This document shows positions 15,109 through 44,543 of a DNA stretch of 45,305 nt, in pieces. Within the stretch, counting starts at the first letter, position 1. Each line of letters starts with the position of its first letter. The position numbers and the translations under genes are program-made. The DNA comes from Escherichia virus TH11, in the sequence record MT446389.1. One strand, 5' to 3'. The notes under the pieces were generated by a model. The model worked only from the letters and a program-made list of their open reading frames with translations, was not told the DNA's origin and did not search any database.

Positions 15109-15422
15109 TTGAGGCGGCGCGACGCTTTTATGGTCCGCCGCCACCCTCCGAAGATTTAGCCGCAAGTTTATGGGGTGCGGCCCCCGAAGATGTTTGTCCG
15201 CCTGTTGCGCTATGGCCCGACAACGCGAAGATAGTCGCAGTCTTCACAGATTGCGCCACGCAATGGCGCACCGGATTTGGTGGCGCATACGGCATCGACT
15301 ACGGCGTGCTGGAGTGGTTATTTAAGATGCACGGTATCGAAAACGAGCAGCGCGCGTTTAAAGATATCAAGCTAATGGAACGAATCGCGCTTGATGAGAT
15401 GGCGCAGCAGAACCCCGCATAA
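14731..15422 (+). CDS. tail assembly chaperone GT-like fusion via -1 frameshift
   Basis: -1 frame stays open with no start codon from 15099 to stop at 15420-15422 (about 107 codons); slippery A_AAA_AAC at 15099-15105. Confidence 0.55.
15099..15142 (+). promoter_or_regulatory. programmed -1 frameshift signal
   Basis: Heptamer AAAAAAC in X_XXY_YYZ register; 7-bp stem GGCGGCG/CGCCGCC starting about 8 nt downstream. Confidence 0.5.
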
Positions 15423-15780
15423 TGCAGCGGGACGTCCCGTTTTGTCCCGCCTCTGTAAAACTGCATACCTACTCACACCCACTGCATAAACCAAAAACGG
15501 GACAAACGGGACGTCCCGATCTGTCCCGCCATGTAAATGTGCATACCTATTCAGATTTCGTGCATAAAGTAAGCGGGACAAAAAGCGGGACAAACAAGGA
15601 GCGGGACAAAGCGGGACAGCACCCCGTCCCCGCCAGTGCTGCCGCGGGTTGCGGCCGATCGGGACAAGCGGGACAAACCCCAGTCTTTCAGACTAGACGG
15701 GGGTCAATGGCCCCCCTCGTCTGAGACTGAATAAGGTTTGTTTTAAATTCGCTGATACAATGTCAATCGGCAACTGCATA
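15266..15780. repeat. tandem duplication unit 1 (515 bp)
   Basis: Identical to 15781-16295; track ORFs at +515 offset give identical translations; both junctions read directly. Confidence 0.85.
15426..15729. repeat. GCGGGACAAA repeat array copy 1 with terminal stem-loop
   Basis: At least 12 GGGAC(A/G) cores in both orientations, two GCGGGACGTCCCG palindromes, repeated TGCATACCTAYTCA and TGCATAAA, then GC-rich hairpin at 15680-15729. Confidence 0.75.
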
Positions 15781-16295
15781 GCGCACCGGATTTGGTGGCG
15801 CATACGGCATCGACTACGGCGTGCTGGAGTGGTTATTTAAGATGCACGGTATCGAAAACGAGCAGCGCGCGTTTAAAGATATCAAGCTAATGGAACGAAT
15901 CGCGCTTGATGAGATGGCGCAGCAGAACCCCGCATAATGCAGCGGGACGTCCCGTTTTGTCCCGCCTCTGTAAAACTGCATACCTACTCACACCCACTGC
16001 ATAAACCAAAAACGGGACAAACGGGACGTCCCGATCTGTCCCGCCATGTAAATGTGCATACCTATTCAGATTTCGTGCATAAAGTAAGCGGGACAAAAAG
16101 CGGGACAAACAAGGAGCGGGACAAAGCGGGACAGCACCCCGTCCCCGCCAGTGCTGCCGCGGGTTGCGGCCGATCGGGACAAGCGGGACAAACCCCAGTC
16201 TTTCAGACTAGACGGGGGTCAATGGCCCCCCTCGTCTGAGACTGAATAAGGTTTGTTTTAAATTCGCTGATACAATGTCAATCGGCAACTGCATA
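15781..16295. repeat. tandem duplication unit 2 (515 bp)
   Basis: Perfect copy of 15266-15780; junction caactgcata|gcgcaccgga. Confidence 0.85.
15941..16244. repeat. GCGGGACAAA repeat array copy 2
   Basis: Identical to 15426-15729 as part of the 515-bp duplication. Confidence 0.75.
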
Positions 16296-28291: not shown

Positions 28292-28316
28292 GAAGGGGCC
28301 ATACGGCCCCTTTTTA
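28292..28316. terminator. bidirectional hairpin terminator
   Basis: aaggggcc-atac-ggcccctt followed by TTTTT; between convergent genes. Confidence 0.55.
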
Positions 28317-28889: not shown

Positions 28890-28931
28890 TGTGAAGCCCT
28901 CATTGCTGCGGGCCGAAGCCCGCTATTAGAA

Positions 28932-29264
28932 TTATTTAAGTGCGCTAGTCACCAGTGTTTTTTCCATATTGCGGAAGTCTTCCGGCGTCATGAGGATTTT
29001 GGACCCATCCTCGCCAGTGAGCACGACCATAGGCTGGACTTCTTGATCCGCAATGCCGAAATTGGCGGCTTTAACGGTCTTCCCTAACGAGGCCACCGTA
29101 TCCTCGGCAACGCGCATTCCACTGTTATACGCATTAATCTCGCCATCCAGGCGCACGGACAGGTCCGAAGGCTTGAACGCGCCGCCGGTCTTGATAGGCC
29201 AGCCCTTGAGGCTGTCGAATTGCGCTGCCGTTGTATCGATCTGAATCTCGTCATGCACGGTCAT
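28932..29264 (-). CDS. hypothetical protein
   Basis: 110 aa from internal ATG (MTVHDEIQ); track N-terminal extension overlaps a better-supported small gene. Confidence 0.4.
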   Translation of the reverse strand: MTVHDEIQIDTTAAQFDSLKGWPIKTGGAFKPSDLSVRLDGEINAYNSGMRVAEDTVASLGKTVKAANFGIADQEVQPMVVLTGEDGSKILMTPEDFRNMEKTLVTSALK

Positions 29265-29406
29265 GTAAGACTCGCCCGGTAAGCGCGTTAAACACGGCAG
29301 CGATCTGTTTCGCGCTGCGTTCTTCTTTCGCGTTGTCATAGCCGTTTTCTTTTCCGCGCTGTTCCATAGTGGTGGCGGCGTTTTTGCAGTATTCGTATGC
29401 TTTCAT
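29254..29406 (-). CDS. small hypothetical protein (50 aa)
   Basis: Strong RBS AGGAG 7 nt upstream of ATG at 29406; own translation. Confidence 0.3.
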
Positions 29407-29423
29407 GGTTTGTCTCCTTTTAG

Positions 29424-29453
29424 GGGAGGCAGTATTGCCTCCCGATGTGGTTG
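29424..29453. repeat. conserved stem-loop element copy 1
   Basis: GGGAGGC-AGTATT-GCCTCCC followed by GATGTGGTT. Confidence 0.5.
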
Positions 29454-29457
29454 TGTG

Positions 29458-29727
29458 TTATTTCTTGGCCCACTCCAGAGTTTTACACTCGTAGTCTTCT
29501 TCGGCCTGGCTGAGCACACACGTCATCATGTGCTCCGCATTGTCAAATCCGCTGGATTTAGCGTATTTATCTGCTCCTCCAACCTCTGCAATCTCGGCGT
29601 TTAGCGCCTCTACAGAATGCAGTTCGATATTATTAAGATAAGGGCTTGAAACGCCTTCTTTGTCTTCAATCATTGACCAGAATGCGTTGATTTTGTTGTC
29701 CAGGTCCGCACTAATGAATTGTTTCAT
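29458..29727 (-). CDS. hypothetical protein
   Basis: 89 aa from internal ATG (MKQFISADL) with RBS AAGGTG; track start lies in TGCAACCAAT motifs. Confidence 0.45.
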   Translation of the reverse strand: MKQFISADLDNKINAFWSMIEDKEGVSSPYLNNIELHSVEALNAEIAEVGGADKYAKSSGFDNAEHMMTCVLSQAEEDYECKTLEWAKK

Positions 29728-29748
29728 AATATTCACCTTTTTGTTGCG

Positions 29749-29778
29749 GGAGGCGGTATTGCCTCCCGATGTGGTTAA
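29749..29778. repeat. conserved stem-loop element copy 2
   Basis: GGGAGGC-GGTATT-GCCTCCC followed by GATGTGGTT. Confidence 0.5.
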
Positions 29779-29784
29779 TATAGT

Positions 29785-29805
29785 TGGTTGCATTATTGGT
29801 TGCAA
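29785..29805. promoter_or_regulatory. tandem ATTGGTTGCA motifs, candidate leftward promoter
   Basis: Minus strand reads TTGCAA, 17 nt, TATATT upstream of gene 29458..29727. Confidence 0.45.
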
Positions 29806-30263
29806 GTGAATTTTGCAAGATTCACAGAATAAATATGCGGGACCAGTTCTTCACACGCCCGTTTGATGGCGGCGATGTTCTTCGCGCAGTCGTCAATGAT
29901 GACCAGTTCGTTAACTTCTGCATAGCACACCAGGCCAAATACGGAACGGGCCTTGTACTCTGGCGGCGGCGTGTCATCAAGCATATGGCGTAAGAACAGA
30001 CGACCTTTCGGGAATCTATCCAATTGCTCTTTCGTTGACTCCCAGCAATCTGACTGGCGGTTTGACAGGTACGCAATGTCGAAGCCCTGTTTAGCGTACA
30101 TGCGCAATAACGGCAGCATGTCATAATTAATGTCTTCGCGGACGTGGGCCTTATGCCACTTCGCCCAAAACGTTGATTTAGTCTTGATCCCCGGAACTAG
30201 GTCGTCGCGCACACTGCTTGACCCGTTGATAACGCCATCTAAATCGCAAATCAGTAGTTTCAT
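29793..30263 (-). CDS. HAD-superfamily phosphatase-like protein
   Basis: Motif I CDLDGVI, motif II IAYLSNR, motif IV VIIDD. Confidence 0.55.
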   Translation of the reverse strand: MKLLICDLDGVINGSSSVRDDLVPGIKTKSTFWAKWHKAHVREDINYDMLPLLRMYAKQGFDIAYLSNRQSDCWESTKEQLDRFPKGRLFLRHMLDDTPPPEYKARSVFGLVCYAEVNELVIIDDCAKNIAAIKRACEELVPHIYSVNLAKFTCNQ

Positions 30264-30947: not shown

Positions 30948-31392
30948 AGTCGGGATCTATCGCATACAGGGCGGTTTTCTTGCCACTGGATAGCACGCGT
31001 TGGACTCGGGATAGCTCCGCCCTACTGAGCGGTCGGCTATCGGAATAGTAGCTGCCGTTTGCACGCCACGCTATACGCACCAGTCCTTTCCGCGGGATCG
31101 AAGACTGGCTGCCCTTCGGACGGACGTACTCCTCGGCCAGTTTGCAATGCTCGCGCAGACCTTCGGCAGTGATGCGGTTTAGCGCGACGGTGGTTGTGTA
31201 CCCGGTGCGCTGCATAATACCCATCAACTCATACAGCAGTTCGAAGCGCTCCTCTAACTCCTTGCGCATCTTTTCCTCGCCTTCATAGCTCGCCAGGTAG
31301 GTATCCGCGAGCGCGTTCGCCCGTTCGACCTGTTCGCGGGCTTCGAGGCATTGCGCGGCCCAGTAATTTTTCTCTTCTTGTAAAATTTTCAT
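30934..31392 (-). CDS. hypothetical protein
   Basis: 152 aa, coiled-coil N-terminus. Confidence 0.45.
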   Translation of the reverse strand: MKILQEEKNYWAAQCLEAREQVERANALADTYLASYEGEEKMRKELEERFELLYELMGIMQRTGYTTTVALNRITAEGLREHCKLAEEYVRPKGSQSSIPRKGLVRIAWRANGSYYSDSRPLSRAELSRVQRVLSSGKKTALYAIDPDYDGE

Positions 31393-31446
31393 CGTGTTGT
31401 CTCCAGGTATTAAAAAAGGCGTCCAAACCGGACACCCTTAAGATAA

Positions 31447-31473
31447 TGCAACCAATATGATTATGCAACCAAT
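31447..31473. promoter_or_regulatory. tandem TGCAACCAAT motifs, candidate leftward promoter
   Basis: Minus strand reads TTGCAT, 17 nt, TATCTT upstream of gene starting 31392. Confidence 0.45.
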
Positions 31474-31797
31474 TTACGCATAAAAGTTCGGGTCGCGTGC
31501 GACGTCTACCAGGTAAAGGTTGCTTATGCGGTTGCCGTAGTGCCCTGGAGTGCGCTGGCGGCACACAACGGCGAAGCCTGGAGGGATTGTATTGCCCGTC
31601 TCAATAATCCACGCCACGCGTGCGCCAGACAGCGTCTTTCCGTTGCATTCGATACGTGTTCCACCATCGGCAGTATTGATGTTGCCAATCTTGCAGCCGG
31701 TGGACTTCAGACGGATGACTCCGGTTTTGCTGTCGTAGGTGAATAGCTGGTTAGTCATTGCGACTGAAAAATCGATGGTTTCGTATGTAGCGTTCAT
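31474..31797 (-). CDS. hypothetical protein, possible degenerate HNH_3-like
   Basis: 107 aa; Gly-rich beta-hairpin pattern loosely like HNH_3 but catalytic His not evident. Confidence 0.3.
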   Translation of the reverse strand: MNATYETIDFSVAMTNQLFTYDSKTGVIRLKSTGCKIGNINTADGGTRIECNGKTLSGARVAWIIETGNTIPPGFAVVCRQRTPGHYGNRISNLYLVDVARDPNFYA

Positions 31798-37394: not shown

Positions 37395-38180
37395 TTAACG
37401 GCGGCGACGTTTACGTGGCGCTTCGTCTTCGTCGTCGTCCTCATCTTCGTCATCGCGTGGCTTACGACGTTTGCGAGGTTTTTCATCTTCCTCATCGTCG
37501 TCATCACGACGTTTTGACTTTTTGGACTTGCGCGGCTTGTCATCTTCATCATCGTCATCACGACGTTTTGACTTTTTGGACTTGCGCGGTGCTTCGTCTT
37601 CGTCGTCGTTGTCGTTGTCCAGGTCTTCATCGGAGCAAGAAGACCCGCCACCTCCGAAGGCTTCGCCGTCTTCACGGAATCGCAGACCCAGCAAGCCAGC
37701 CCCGAGACCTTTGCCGTTGGTATTGTTCCATGCCCAAATATCAAGGGACACGTTGCAATAACAACCGGAGTAGATCTCCTGGCCTTCGATCTCGTCGCCT
37801 TCTACGTTCAGACCTTGTTCCGTCTGCTTCTCGCCGAGTGACGTTTGAATGATCGGCTGTTTGAACGATTTGGCGTTGATATACAACATGCCTTCGAATT
37901 CTTCGGTTACTTCGTCGCGCTCGTCACCGTCGCGAACTGCGCATTCCTTAGAATCCTGGGCGTAGTGGCGGTCCATCCACTTATCGGCATTCTTCTCGGA
38001 TTTCAGCTTATCGGTGAGCACTGCGCGCGCTGCCGCTTCCACTTTGTCCACCTGCGGATCTTCTTTATCCAGAAGAATAACGGCACGGTATGCCGGTTTT
38101 TGACCATCCTGTTTAGGGGTATCACGTTCCCAAATTTTAAGGAAGCATACGCGCACATTTTTCAGGTTGACTTTAGCCAT
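37395..38180 (-). CDS. putative ssDNA-binding protein with charged repetitive C-terminal tail
   Basis: Sits between Cas4-like exonuclease and polymerase; Gly hinge then alternating acidic and K/R blocks ending RKRRRR; start trimmed to MAKVNLK. Confidence 0.5.
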   Translation of the reverse strand: MAKVNLKNVRVCFLKIWERDTPKQDGQKPAYRAVILLDKEDPQVDKVEAAARAVLTDKLKSEKNADKWMDRHYAQDSKECAVRDGDERDEVTEEFEGMLYINAKSFKQPIIQTSLGEKQTEQGLNVEGDEIEGQEIYSGCYCNVSLDIWAWNNTNGKGLGAGLLGLRFREDGEAFGGGGSSCSDEDLDNDNDDEDEAPRKSKKSKRRDDDDEDDKPRKSKKSKRRDDDDEEDEKPRKRRKPRDDEDEDDDEDEAPRKRRRR

Positions 38181-40554: not shown

Positions 40555-41073
40555 TTAGTCTTCCAGTTCGAAATAAGTCTCGACGATTTCTTTTAAATCT
40601 TTGTGGAAGTCTTCGACGTCGTCGTCTTCCAGCTTGGCGATTGATTTGATCTCGAACGCTTCCAGCAGGTCGTCAAATTCGTCGTTAGCATCGTCGTCAT
40701 CGCCACCGGCGATAATCGCGGCGTACTGCTTGATCTCGTCGCGCATCTCTGCCAGCGGATCGGCATCTTTCTTCCCTTTGCCTTTCGCCGGAGCTTTTTT
40801 ACCCTTCGCCGGTTTTTCGTCTTCGGCTTCTTCATCGTCGTCATCTTCTACGACTTCTTTTTTGGCCTTACCTTTAGCCGGGGATTTTTTAGATTTAGCC
40901 GGTTTTTCGTCTTCGGCGTCATCGTCGTCATCTTCGACAACTTCTTTTTTGGCCTTAGACGGCTTCTTATCTTCCTGTTTACCAACGGCAGCGCCAACGG
41001 TTTCATAATGCTTTGCAATGGTTTCCAGTGCTACTACGCCGCGAGTGATCAGGTTTACGATTTGCTCAAACAT
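40555..41073 (-). CDS. charged tandem-repeat protein, candidate DNA mimic or nucleoid-associated factor
   Basis: 172 aa from internal ATG with RBS GGAGAT; two in-frame repeats KKEVVEDDDD..EDEKPAK.KK.PAKGK; first gene of leftward early operon. Confidence 0.55.
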   Translation of the reverse strand: MFEQIVNLITRGVVALETIAKHYETVGAAVGKQEDKKPSKAKKEVVEDDDDDAEDEKPAKSKKSPAKGKAKKEVVEDDDDEEAEDEKPAKGKKAPAKGKGKKDADPLAEMRDEIKQYAAIIAGGDDDDANDEFDDLLEAFEIKSIAKLEDDDVEDFHKDLKEIVETYFELED

Positions 41074-41815: not shown

Positions 41816-44080
41816 ATGAGCTTGATTAAATTCGCTGTAACAAAACCCGCTAAAAAAGGCGAAAAAGCCAGGGCGGAAAACTTCCAGATGACGACCGATG
41901 AGTTTTTCGAATTTATCAAAGATGCGAAAGAAATCTCCTCGGTGCATATCAACAAGACGGAAGATAAAGCCGAGTATGCGCGCCGCAAGCGTAAGGCCGA
42001 TGGCATCGTGGCGTATACCAGTGACGGATTGCGTCGTAAGACCAGTGCGGTGGACCGCTCGATCCTGTTCTTTGATATTGACCGCACCGACACCCGCACC
42101 CTGCGCCGCTGCCGTAAGGCGTTCATCGACGCGGGACTGGAACATGTATTTCACACCACAACCGGCGACCGCCACCCGCTGAAAGGTGGCACGCGTTGCG
42201 CTCGTTTCCTGGTGCTCACCGACAAGCCTGTACCGGCGGAAGACCTAGGCCGCGTACAGTATGCACTGTTACACCAACTGGGCCTGTCAGATGTGGACTT
42301 CGATGATTGTACGAAAGACACAAACCGCCTTATGTACCTACCACACCAGCAGTCCGTTGTTAAGTGTCACTACGGCAAACGTGCCCGCGTCCGTCGTCTG
42401 CTTCGCCTGGCGGATAAGCTGGGAGTGGAAAAAGAGGAAGTACGACGCGAACTGACCCAGGGCGATGACGGCGTGGCTGACGGTATTCTGGATTGGTGCT
42501 TCCAGGCGGGATTCGAACCGCTGTCGTCCGGTCGTGGTTATGAAGTGCCATGCCCGAACGAACACCTGCACAGTGGTGAAGGGTCCACCGCTATCATGGT
42601 TAAGGATGGCGAGATCCGTTTCAAGTGTATGCATACCGGCAACGAGTGTTGCTCGGAGCTGAACAGACACCAGCACCTGGCGCTACGTCTTATCGGGATC
42701 CCGGACCACCTGAACGTCGAACCGCACAACATGTCACGTAAGCAAATCGCCGCCATCCTTCCAGGACTGGACGACGAGGAAGTGGAATCGTGCTATGCGC
42801 ATATCGTTGATGCGGTCGGAGACGGCGACGAGTACGGCGGATGTACAGATGCAGACCTGGACAACGAGCCGGTTGCGCTGTTCAGTAAGCACGACCCGAT
42901 CATCGAGGGGCTGATTAACTTCAAATCGACCTGGTATCTTGCTGGCGAGTCGAACATCGGTAAATCGTTCTACGTGCTGGGCCAGATGGCGTCAGTATCT
43001 GCCGGTATTCCGTTCGGCGGCGCGAAGGTCGTCCAGTGCCACAACTTCTATTTCGACGCGGAAGGTGGTGAAGCCTCCAACCAGCGTAAGGAAGCATTGC
43101 AGATCAAATATGAGCACGACCTGGACAAGCTGCACATTATCGATCTGCAGTCACGCGGCTGGGATATCACCAGCAAATCCGGCTTGCGTGAAGTTATCAG
43201 CTTTATCAACCGCACCGCTAACGGCGAGCCGGTTGGCCTGGTGGCGTTCGACTCACTCAACCAGACTGTCGCGTTGCGGTCAGCCGATGCTAAACCGTTC
43301 GACGAGAACAACGCCAGCGATATGGGCGAAGTGGTCAAAGCGCTGAAGGCTATTGCGGAAAACACAGGCGGCAGTGCGGGAGTCATCCACCACCCGGCGA
43401 AAGGTGCAAACGGCAGCAGATCTCCCCGCGGGTCCGGCGCGCTGCATGGTGCTGTCGATTCCGCGTTCTTCCTGGAGCAACCGGACGACAATCAGCCGGG
43501 CCAATTGAACCTGTACCATGAGAAGGCACGTAACGGCATCAAGCAAGCGCCGCGCGGCTTCGTCCTGCTTAAGTGCAAGGTTAAGGTGGATCTCCGCAAG
43601 TCAGAGGCGTTCGAATCGCACCAGTCCACCAGCACCGGGCCTGACTTCGGTGATGTGGTTGCAGGATGGGACGTCAAGCCGATCGCATCAACGCCACGCG
43701 ACGAGACTCTTTACCTCGTACCTGTCGCCCTGGCACCGTTCGCTATTGAGCAGGCGAAGGCCGCGGGTAAGGCAGCAGTTAAGGAAGAGAACCCCGCAGG
43801 ACCGCGCAACGAAAAAGAGAAAGTGCTTTATGCGGCGCTGGAAAAACTGATGGAAGATAACCCGGACCATACCGGATTCAGTAAATCGGCAATCGTCCGC
43901 CAGGCTGGACTTGCGAAAGGTGGCACATCGACGAAGGCAATAGACGATATGGTCGAGCGCGGCGTGCTCGGTTTCTATACAGATCCGCACACCGGGGCCA
44001 TCTATGGGTCATCGAATATCGTCATCAAAACGAATATACCCATCACGCTTTCGGCGACCGATGATGATTTAAAAGATTAA
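41816..44080 (+). CDS. bifunctional primase-polymerase / helicase
   Basis: N-terminal AEP-like FFDIDRTD, Cys/His zinc cluster, C-terminal Walker A AGESNIGKS and Walker B LVAFDSL. Confidence 0.8.
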   Translation: MSLIKFAVTKPAKKGEKARAENFQMTTDEFFEFIKDAKEISSVHINKTEDKAEYARRKRKADGIVAYTSDGLRRKTSAVDRSILFFDIDRTDTRTLRRCRKAFIDAGLEHVFHTTTGDRHPLKGGTRCARFLVLTDKPVPAEDLGRVQYALLHQLGLSDVDFDDCTKDTNRLMYLPHQQSVVKCHYGKRARVRRLLRLADKLGVEKEEVRRELTQGDDGVADGILDWCFQAGFEPLSSGRGYEVPCPNEHLHSGEGSTAIMVKDGEIRFKCMHTGNECCSELNRHQHLALRLIGIPDHLNVEPHNMSRKQIAAILPGLDDEEVESCYAHIVDAVGDGDEYGGCTDADLDNEPVALFSKHDPIIEGLINFKSTWYLAGESNIGKSFYVLGQMASVSAGIPFGGAKVVQCHNFYFDAEGGEASNQRKEALQIKYEHDLDKLHIIDLQSRGWDITSKSGLREVISFINRTANGEPVGLVAFDSLNQTVALRSADAKPFDENNASDMGEVVKALKAIAENTGGSAGVIHHPAKGANGSRSPRGSGALHGAVDSAFFLEQPDDNQPGQLNLYHEKARNGIKQAPRGFVLLKCKVKVDLRKSEAFESHQSTSTGPDFGDVVAGWDVKPIASTPRDETLYLVPVALAPFAIEQAKAAGKAAVKEENPAGPRNEKEKVLYAALEKLMEDNPDHTGFSKSAIVRQAGLAKGGTSTKAIDDMVERGVLGFYTDPHTGAIYGSSNIVIKTNIPITLSATDDDLKD

Positions 44081-44155
44081 ATTTTGCGCGCATTGGTTGC
44101 CGATATGGGAATTCCCATATCGCTAGAAGATTAAATTTTGCGCGCATTGGTTGCC
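44073..44155. repeat. direct repeat - palindrome - direct repeat element
   Basis: 29-bp direct repeat at 44073-44101 and 44127-44155 flanking perfect 20-bp palindrome gatatgggaattcccatatc at 44102-44121. Confidence 0.7.
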
Positions 44156-44213
44156 ATTTTGAGTGTTTTTATCTGGTCGTATTGGTTGCCGTGTAGTGTA
44201 AATATAGTGAATA

Positions 44214-44402
44214 GTTATGCAGTTTTATTGCATAAAGTAAGCGGGACAAAAAGCGGGACAAACAAGGGGCGGGACAAAGCGGGACAGCACCCCTGTCCCA
44301 CCCCGGATGACGCGGCCTGGAGAGGAGCGGGACAGGCGGGACAACCCCCAGTCTTTCAGACTAGACGGGGGGTCAATGGCCCCCCTCGTCTGAGACTGAA
44401 TA
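44214..44402. repeat. GCGGGACAAA repeat array copy 3 with terminal stem-loop
   Basis: Paralogue of 15565-15735 with a few substitutions; preceded by AT-rich stretch; hairpin at 44350-44398. Confidence 0.7.
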
Positions 44403-44543
44403 AAATCCGGGGATTGCAAAATACACGGCAGCATGATGCGAAGTGCGGTCGAGGATGAACTAGGCAACCAATGCGAGATGCATTATGCTGAGTGAAAAAT
44501 GCAGTTTGCAGTCACAGCAGATAGCGATCAACTTTTTCATGCG

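Follow-up and report, generated by a model that had tools for sequence, protein, structure and literature searches.

Why does a short G/C hairpin occur twice in the leftward operon of a small coliphage, in each case immediately upstream of the ribosome-binding site of a small gene, and what does it do there? A sequence-only reading of the window (by which we mean the whole 45.3-kb stretch of DNA analyzed) had described two near-identical 30-bp elements with a 7-bp GC stem and a 6-nt loop, had judged them unlikely to be terminators, and had suggested that they could be RNA processing sites, translational operators or protein-binding sites placed before two consecutive early genes. It further proposed a covariance-model search for additional copies and pointed to conservation in relatives as a check. 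Here we follow up these suggestions by comparing the locus with its relatives and with known hairpin systems.

The repeated element

A pattern scan of the window found exactly two matches to GGGAGGC-N6-GCCTCCC, at 29424-29443 and 29748-29767, compared with a mean of 0.17 matches in dinucleotide shuffles (n = 100), none of which contained two or more; the stem and loop dimensions of the sequence-only reading are thereby confirmed. The repetition itself also stands, with altered boundaries: the shared unit is 29 nt rather than 30 bp, the 30th base being different, and it occupies 29424-29452 (copy 1) and 29748-29776 (copy 2), so that the interval given earlier for the second element, 29749-29778, was off by 1-2 nt. 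The two copies agree at 28 of 29 positions, and their sole mismatch lies in the loop (A/G on the plus strand, T/C on the minus strand). Read on the minus strand, the repeat is AACCACATC-GGGAGGC-AATACY-GCCTCCC. Copy 2 (29748..29776, minus strand) consists of AACCACATC (29776-29768), comprising the promoter discriminator and start region, followed by GGGAGGC-AATACC-GCCTCCC (29767-29748), and copy 1 (29424..29452, minus strand) is a promoter-less duplicate of these 29 nt with the loop AATACT.

The minus-strand RNA folds with an energy of -16.8 kcal/mol at copy 2 and -16.0 kcal/mol at copy 1 (z-scores of -3.9 and -4.3 relative to shuffles). Both copies lie 5' of a Shine-Dalgarno sequence and an ATG on this strand, the transcribed one, just upstream of ribosome-binding sites as first described; copy 1 follows the stop codon of an 89-aa gene and precedes the Shine-Dalgarno sequence of a DUF6378 gene, AAGGAG. 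After the stem the minus strand reads GCAACAAAAAGG at copy 2 and CTAAAAGGAG at copy 1, and the plus strand reads GATGTGGTT; the downstream tract is A-rich, not U-rich, no T-run follows the stem on either strand at either copy, and neither copy was reported by a terminator scan. The earlier judgment on termination thus holds, and we rejected an intrinsic terminator on the grounds that there is no U-tract, that the copies stand 6-12 nt before a Shine-Dalgarno sequence, and that the real terminator of the unit is at 28293-28312.

In the window, a covariance model scored copy 2 at 36.7 bits and copy 1 at 36.9 bits and, with filters off, yielded no third copy; the next-best match, at 13 bits, was the element's own reverse strand, followed by the operon terminator. 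Rfam gave zero matches across the whole window at gathering thresholds, and with permissive thresholds over 29300-29900 it gave one chance-level match only, away from the element. The element had zero matches among 5,426 complete E. coli genomes, which rules out a host REP/BIME-type palindrome or a host-derived origin. Exact-pattern scans of IMG/VR for the two main hairpin types returned Dhillonvirus contigs and chance-level matches only, the latter being an ordinary terminator in contig L029 and a look-alike 5' of baseplate gene W in the P2-like prophage contigs L033 and L035.

Genome and operon

Database matches to the region comprise Escherichia virus TH13 at 100% and about 155 further records at 80-99%, nearly all of them from Dhillonvirus; judged by these matches, the window is a Dhillonvirus genome (HK578-like, an E. 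coli siphovirus of ~44 kb). Its minus-strand genes occupy ~28.3-41.3 kb, and the structural genes are on the plus strand. The hairpin pair lies towards the 3' end of this leftward block, shortly before a bidirectional intrinsic terminator (28293..28312) that ends both the leftward unit and the convergent tail-fibre gene.

Copies 1 and 2 bracket an inserted gene of 89 aa (29458..29727, minus strand; phrog_7287), the start of which is supported by homologs that align from residue 1. A longer frame of 111/115 aa proposed by some gene callers was rejected as an artifact, as it spans the promoter and the hairpin and the homologs start at residue 1. The 89-aa protein had no match in Pfam, NCBIfam or PDB. 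The native downstream cistron is the DUF6378 gene (28932..29406, minus strand; phrog_9871, with Pfam PF19905 matched on an intact homolog). In alignment with JLBYU60, McMelon and Pandora71, the gene in the window is missing 119 nt, resulting in a frameshift that leaves a 51-codon N-terminal ORF (29251..29406) and an out-of-frame remainder of a protein that is 173-184 aa when intact. Of the two small genes named in the sequence-only reading, the one at 29458..29727 is therefore genuine, with homologs aligning from its first residue, and the one at 29254..29406 is the remnant of the DUF6378 deletion. A second intercistronic hairpin, GCGGGC-UUCG-GCCCGC (28908..28923, minus strand), stands before the Shine-Dalgarno sequence of a 191-aa gene; it has no U-run and is nearly invariant among relatives.

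Promoter and predicted transcription start

A sigma70-type promoter, TTGCAA-17-TATATT (29777..29805, minus strand; 9 of 12 consensus matches), carries two TGCAACCAA motifs and directly precedes copy 2, the nine bases AACCACATC spanning the distance from the -10 hexamer to the stem. From the usual 7-nt distance to the -10 hexamer, the predicted transcription start is the A at 29770, which would place the beginning of the stem at +3/+4. The predicted RNA would open with AUC followed by the stem, and in the fold of copy 2 the C also pairs, leaving two unpaired nucleotides. A promoter at copy 1 was rejected because the -10 is absent: neither a -35 nor a -10 hexamer lies upstream of that copy (ACACAC/TAACAC, with …AAATAACACAC abutting AACCACATC).

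Among the relatives, the -35 and -10 hexamers are kept in all loci with a spacer of 17-18 nt, including loci with a divergent spacer sequence or a different upstream gene, giving TTGCAA-17/18-TAT(A/C)(T/G)T. The distance from the -10 to the stem is 9 nt at every locus but the L025/L053 variant (7 nt), which is also the one exception to the presence of a purine at the seventh nucleotide past the -10. Nucleotides +1 to +3, as predicted, are themselves base-paired in several variants, and the number of unpaired 5' nucleotides across the loci, as predicted from promoter geometry alone, is 0-3.

A literature search found no transcript map, transcription start site or promoter study for Dhillonvirus, and the HK578 record has promoters annotated elsewhere and nothing at the hairpin site. 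The other predicted promoters of the window genome lack a comparable hairpin, so that such an element is no general rule of promoter design here. The TGCAACCAA motif, present in about 20 copies at promoter-like sites, is the obvious candidate for a DNA operator of this genome.

Conservation of the hairpin among relatives

The comparison covered 43 related loci, taken from deposited phage genomes, IMG/VR and metagenomic data; some of these loci represent the same phage from two sources. The gene and signal order is the same in all 43: a phosphatase/PNK-like gene, the promoter, 9 nt (7 in L025/L053), the G/C hairpin, 6-12 nt, a Shine-Dalgarno sequence, and the ATG or GTG of the DUF6378 gene. The hairpin is thus found at one fixed place in 43 of 43 related loci, bearing out its conservation in relatives. 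A cmsearch with the covariance model, built from 18 variants, gave a single match per locus in 40 related loci and two matches apiece in McMelon (L001), Pandora71 (L002) and the window, with none elsewhere in these sequences, and a single match in the complete HK578 genome. The search for further copies therefore added one per related locus and none within the window.

Three stem types occur, GGGAGGC/GCCTCCC (7 bp), GGGGGC/GCCCCC (6 bp) and GGGGC/GCCCC (5 bp), with fold energies of -11.7 to -17 kcal/mol among the variants. The 9-nt upstream stretch reads AACCACATC, AAACGTGTC or TAACGCGTC, and the three stem lengths share upstream contexts, for example TATCTTAATCACGTC in L006, L040 and L045. 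Over 32 distinct sequences, 98.4% of the cells are paired, versus 58-70% when the 3' partners were slid. One pair is G-C in 17 of these sequences, A-U in 12 and unpaired in three, and the outer pair is G-U in two sequences; using an independent alignment, RNAalifold predicted the hairpin stem as the only helix. These comparisons indicate that it is the pairing of the stem rather than its sequence that is conserved. The covariation is thin, since it concerns a single pair, probably reflects few independent events, and comes from closely related genomes in which the neighboring gene has 75-100% protein identity. An internal mismatch goes uncompensated in four stem variants, as A.G in Ioannina/LM40P1 and as A.C in L014/L018; the A.C mismatches would read G.U on the opposite strand, and in a wobble-pair strand test two variants favor the sense and two the antisense strand. 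In none of the folds is the Shine-Dalgarno sequence sequestered by the hairpin.

The loop is mostly AAUACN, with the variants AACGCC (in phage vB_Eco_Lzu_P1, hereafter Lzu_P1), AAUAAA, AAUCCG, GAUAUG and AUUACC. Conservation of AAUAC exceeds the need of a purely structural stabilizer and thus leaves room for a binding factor.

Acquisition of the second copy

Two hairpin copies were found only in TH13, McMelon, Pandora71 and the metagenome contigs L037-L039, and among Dhillonviruses the 89-aa gene is present in the same three phages and three contigs only. The 29-nt repeats are the exact flanks of the 89-aa gene insertion; beyond them, the sequence on the left side of copy 1 is unrelated to that on the right side of copy 2. 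Since the relatives keep one hairpin at a fixed place and have two only together with the 89-aa gene, copy 2 is best read as the native, promoter-proximal leader hairpin, and the ancestral state, as judged from these sequences, is one hairpin directly 3' of the conserved promoter. The notion of two parallel regulatory sites for two genes overlooks this history, the additional copy occurring only with the inserted gene and having no promoter of its own.

Outside Dhillonvirus, a tblastn search identified homologs of the 89-aa protein in rV5-like (Vequintavirinae) myoviruses that are 50-60% identical, have their own sigma70 promoter and are flanked by different small G/C hairpins without U-runs. 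No direct donor was found, these 50-60% identical homologs being the only ones shown by tblastn and a large protein database returning the same cluster only. Within Dhillonvirus, the window and Pandora71 share 99.4% identity over the cassette that runs from copy 2 to copy 1, compared with 75.8% over the adjacent phosphatase gene and 87-95% over the DUF6378 gene, and the left junction of the high-identity block falls within the conserved promoter. Both loop alleles are known as single copies elsewhere, AATACC in slur06 and AATACT in JLBYU60, and the loop allele of copy 1 together with its downstream leader is identical to the single copy of JLBYU60. This sequence mosaic indicates modular exchange via conserved regulatory sequence. 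The duplication could have arisen by homologous recombination in the 29-nt leader, or a circular [hairpin + gene] molecule could have integrated, an event that would leave a direct repeat of the kind observed; the 29-nt repeat would also permit precise loss of the 89-aa gene.

A second insertion has occurred at the same leader. In Lzu_P1 and contig L057, a different gene of 74 aa follows the same promoter and hairpin; its homologs are proteins of 38-47% identity in Rtp/T1-like phages, and the 74-aa and 89-aa proteins are alike over their first ten residues only. The duplicated piece in L057 is the ribosome-binding site and start (AGGAAAACATCATGAAA), and in both L057 and Lzu_P1 another hairpin, GGCCCC-GAAA-GGGGCC without a U-run, stands before the DUF6378 gene. 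After insertion, the Shine-Dalgarno sequence of each cistron is preceded, within a few nucleotides, by a G/C hairpin. The finding of two unrelated insertions behind one hairpin marks the DUF6378 leader as a recurrent landing site.

Comparison with known systems

The closest described parallel is found in T4-type phages, whose PeSL (promoter-early stem-loop) cassettes (Arbiol, Comeau et al. 2010, PMC2839356; Comeau et al. 2014, PMC4122927) join a sigma70 promoter to a G-run/C-run stem-loop and shuffle variable ORFans, including via mini-circles (PMC2839356). The composite of promoter, G/C stem-loop, Shine-Dalgarno sequence and ATG is present at copy 2 and not at copy 1. As with PeSLs, the repeats enclose small ORFans whose presence varies among close relatives, and recombination within the repeat accounts for how the cassette is inserted, deleted and spread horizontally. 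PeSLs, however, occur in dozens of copies in the hyperplastic regions of large myoviruses, whereas here each 44-kb siphovirus genome has a single locus, and each PeSL has its own promoter, whereas the part duplicated here is the 29 nt of start region and hairpin, leaving copy 1 promoter-less. On this comparison the element appears PeSL-like in its evolution and should not be classed as a PeSL.

A second resemblance is to the 5'-terminal stabilizers of ompA, papA and T7 gene 10, a class defined by a stem that starts about 0-4 nt from the primary 5' end. The stem at copy 2 is predicted to start 0-3 nt from the 5' end, and it leaves the ribosome-binding site unoccluded; the differences are that the 5' end is here a prediction from the promoter and that there is no sequence similarity to those leaders. 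Copy 1 and the GCGGGC-UUCG-GCCCGC hairpin resemble intercistronic stem-loops without a U-tract (the T4 C(UUCG)G hairpins and REP sequences such as that of malE-malF) in being non-terminator G/C stems, and by this analogy they could hold back 3' exonucleases or set the ends of processed RNAs. Unlike such elements, copy 1 was recently duplicated from a promoter-proximal element and is not ancestrally intercistronic, and it has no host REP match.

The lambda nut sites also combine a short conserved single strand with a small hairpin 3' of a promoter and occur in two copies, but they have a 5-bp stem and a GNRA-like pentaloop where the present element has a 5-7-bp stem and an AAUACN hexaloop, and both copies here lie in one short operon and derive from an ancestral single copy. 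The boxA consensus is CGCTCTTA-like; a lambda-type nut site was rejected, there being no boxA-like sequence in the upstream 9 nt and the loop being wrong. Cleavage by RNase III, one of the processing routes raised by the sequence-only reading, is likewise improbable and was rejected, the stem of only 5-8 bp (at most 7-8 bp) falling short of the about 20 bp, or two helical turns, of its sites and no longer consensus helix being nearby.

Proposed role and alternative explanations

We propose, with roughly even confidence, that the last leftward transcription unit of Dhillonvirus has the element as its 5' leader hairpin, and that a foreign gene recombining into this leader doubled it here. Host RNA polymerase would start at the conserved purine 7 nt past the -10 (29770), and in the transcript the stable stem would be preceded by 0-3 unpaired nucleotides. 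According to the review PMC3997798 and its refs 92-95, base pairing at the 5' terminus hinders RppH and the 5'-end attack of RNase E in E. coli and prolongs mRNA life, the classical cases given there being ompA, papA and the phage T7 gene 10 leader (Emory/Bouvet/Belasco 1992, via PMC3997798). Copy 2 would act in the same manner, hindering RppH and 5'-end-dependent RNase E and thereby stabilizing the whole transcript. Copy 1 would be primarily a recombination joint and at most an internal barrier that guards the flanking cistron ends after processing; it may hinder exonucleases or define processed ends, and it may also be functionless. The alternatives that we considered are each less well supported than this leader-hairpin proposal.

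The foremost of them, although unlikely, takes the stem-loop to be a PeSL-like insulator that attenuates or terminates read-through from the long upstream operon and thereby leaves the genes behind it reliant on their own promoter, the portable promoter-plus-stem-loop cassette serving to shuffle genes. The order of sigma70 promoter, poly-G/poly-C stem-loop, Shine-Dalgarno sequence and ATG matches, and resembles in particular the PeSL subclass with the stem-loop just 3' of the -10; the drop in reporter expression caused by one PeSL stem-loop was close to that with rrnB T1 (PMC2839356). The repeats flanking an ORFan of variable presence, the mosaicism of the cassette between backbones and the second insertion at the same site are equally in keeping with it. 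An insulator of this kind would, however, lie 3' of its own start site, so that an efficient terminator would stop the transcripts of its own promoter, and the tract after the stem is A-rich where a terminator calls for U. The many copies of PeSLs in hyperplastic regions, set against one locus per genome here, and the lack of a promoter at copy 1 also argue against it.

Only slightly less probable, and still improbable, is an RNA operator, in which the AAUAC-loop hairpin would be bound by a phage or host protein (a translational repressor or a processivity factor of the nut/boxB type) controlling the downstream cistrons, the inserted gene having gained this control with its copy. Loop positions 1-5 are AAUAC in most variants while the upstream 9 nt and the sixth loop base vary freely, and the site lies after the promoter and before the ribosome-binding sites, a position comparable to those of lambda nutL and of the phage coat-protein and RegA-type operators. 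Against this, the loop departs from AAUAC in the variants AACGCC, AAUAAA, AAUCCG, GAUAUG and AUUACC, and in Lzu_P1 and L057 the DUF6378 gene follows the wholly different GGCCCC-GAAA-GGGGCC hairpin. There is also no boxA-like sequence, no pentaloop and a single site per ancestral genome, and the unit, with two genes and a strong terminator at its end, offers antitermination no obvious use. The zero matches to Rfam families and the unoccluded Shine-Dalgarno sequence count against an operator as well, and the translational operator or protein-binding site envisaged in the sequence-only reading found no support, the Shine-Dalgarno sequence being free and the loop not invariant.

We attach the same low probability to the absence of any dedicated function, according to which the hairpin would persist only because the promoter-leader around it is short and diverges slowly, copy 1 being a neutral scar of recombination. 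The close relationship of all compared genomes (75-100% protein identity in the neighboring gene), the single covarying pair and the internal mismatches tolerated by four variants are what would be expected of such persistence. It accounts poorly for the 9-nt spacer and the post-stem leader, which diverge far more than the stem, and for changes in stem length that are matched on both arms in various flanking contexts. Insertion of the other gene, moreover, still leaves a G/C hairpin before the ribosome-binding site of DUF6378, and the next cistron is preceded by the second conserved UUCG hairpin.

A more speculative and somewhat less probable extension holds that the hairpin might serve as a dedicated docking site, turning the leader of the DUF6378 (nucleotide-modification-associated) operon into a programmed hot spot where accessory and possibly anti-defense genes insert; a phage factor (a recombination helper or an RNA-binding regulator) might recognize the AAUAC loop. 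If this were true, the locus would be a one-locus counterpart of the T4 PeSL cassettes in small siphoviruses, and the inserted genes would inherit the same control.

Least probable of all is a DNA operator, in which the 20-bp inverted repeat centered at ~+13 would bind a dimeric phage regulator that blocks or modulates the promoter: although its perfect palindromic arms cover the start region, a frequent location of repressor operators, and change jointly, as those of a symmetric protein site would, the arm length varies (5, 6 or 7 bp) around an asymmetric center, G.U-type changes in L016 and L054/L055 preserve RNA pairing and break DNA symmetry, the repeat is present at one promoter only in a genome where TGCAACCAA is the obvious operator candidate, and copy 1 lies away from any promoter.

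Implications

The element is real, conserved and previously unannotated, yet of a familiar kind, a leader hairpin duplicated by a horizontally acquired gene, and it reveals no new regulatory principle. Its analysis provides a concrete promoter-leader architecture for poorly studied, widely used coliphages. Dhillonviruses feature in the BASEL collection and in anti-defense studies. The locus also shows the site and manner in which small accessory genes are gained, genes of rV5 type and of T1/Rtp type having been acquired independently behind one hairpin, and the most useful product of the comparison is this recurrent insertion site together with a testable promoter-leader in Dhillonviruses. The leader would constitute a natural 'landing pad' for the engineering of payload genes in these phages. 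Lastly, two annotations are corrected: the 89-aa gene is called 111 aa in some records, and the 51-codon ORF is a deletion remnant.

The GCAACCAA/TTGGTTGC motif at promoter-like regions

The window contains 21 occurrences of the 8-mer GCAACCAA/TTGGTTGC and phage HK578 (locus L046) contains 19, against an expectation of ~1.3; sites in the window lie at 2372, 9825/9838, 26440, 29784/29796, 31448/31465, 34423, 38237/38253, 41278, 44093/44147/44182, 44464, 44555/44586 and 45104. The sites are mostly paired at a spacing of 12-17 nt within promoter-like intergenic regions, where they often overlap the -35 element (TTGCAACCAA) or stop 1-2 nt short of the -10 element. In many relatives, the pair in the promoter that precedes copy 2, the native leader hairpin, forms a perfect inverted repeat (TGCAACCAATAGGTTGGTTGCA). 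The motif probably serves as operator for a phage regulator, or else as a promoter element specific to the phage; no description of it was found.

A 32-nt direct repeat, TA(A/G)AAGATTAAATTTTGCGCGCATTGGTTGCC, is present in two copies 54 nt apart (window 44070-44101 and 44124-44155), each of which contains one TTGGTTGC motif, and a third such motif lies at 44182. The arrangement resembles an array of iteron-like or operator sites. On the minus strand at 31380-31490, a promoter-like TTGCAT-17-TATCTT, which contains two TTGGTTGCA motifs, overlaps the intrinsic terminator AAGGGTGTCC-GGTTT-GGACGCCTTTTTT; its predicted start falls within the 5' arm of the terminator, making a compact terminator-promoter composite.

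Variation at the promoter-hairpin locus

In two related loci, metagenome contig L057 (1-400) and phage vB_Eco_Lzu_P1 (L059, 270-620), the same promoter and hairpin are followed by a different inserted gene, of 74 aa, which has homologues among Rtp/T1-like phages. A new hairpin, GGCCCC-GAAA-GGGGCC, precedes the DUF6378 gene in both, and L057 also carries a duplication of the ribosome-binding site and start. A natural deletion variant was also observed (L037, Logan contig ERR13989581_22318, 1400-1560), which lacks the 152-aa gene, Dam, the 73-aa gene and the phosphatase; here the 152-aa gene's start region has been joined into the spacer of the promoter that precedes copy 2, with loss of that promoter's -35 element. 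In phage McMelon (CDS0030, L001 1178-1513) and in protein P0001, the 89-aa gene is annotated or called with a start further upstream, giving 111 aa; this reading frame crosses the promoter and hairpin and is likely a mis-annotation.

Relative to JLBYU60, McMelon and Pandora71, the DUF6378 gene of the window (28932-29406) carries a 119-nt frameshifting deletion and has probably become a pseudogene here; in some relatives DUF6378 is annotated as a nucleotide-modification-associated protein. Between this gene and the 191-aa gene, on the minus strand, lies the intercistronic hairpin GCGGGC-UUCG-GCCCGC (28908-28923), which has a UUCG tetraloop and no U-run and is nearly invariant in all relatives examined.

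Two P2-like prophage contigs of ~36 kb harbor a near-identical hairpin, GTCGGGGGCGATACTGCCCCC (L033 936-962 and L035 3090-3110), which abuts the ATG start of a gpW/gp25-like baseplate gene and is preceded by an inserted 282-aa gene. It scores 30 bits with the covariance model of the leader hairpin, and given the size of the collection the resemblance is probably due to chance.

Duplicated and repetitive sequences

The tail-chaperone/tape-measure upstream region contains a perfect 515-bp tandem duplication (window 15263-15777 and 15778-16292). The unit is single-copy in the deposited TH13 record and in all relatives, where the 1601-nt query aligns to ~1086 nt, so the duplication either arose very recently or reflects an artefact of assembly. 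A 36-nt sequence, GGGGGTCAATGGCCCCCCTCGTCTGAGACTGAATAA, occurs in three perfect copies (15699-15734, 16214-16249 and 44368-44403) and forms the end of two paralogous ORFs, one of ~100 aa close to the tape-measure gene and one of 106 aa near 44.2 kb; the paralogous stretch at 44207-44384 is 82% identical, and neither product has a Pfam match. Lastly, two leftward genes contain repetitive coding DNA (37400-37630 and 40670-40950, minus strand), which, as read from the DNA repeats, apparently encodes alternating acidic (D/E-rich) and K-rich stretches.
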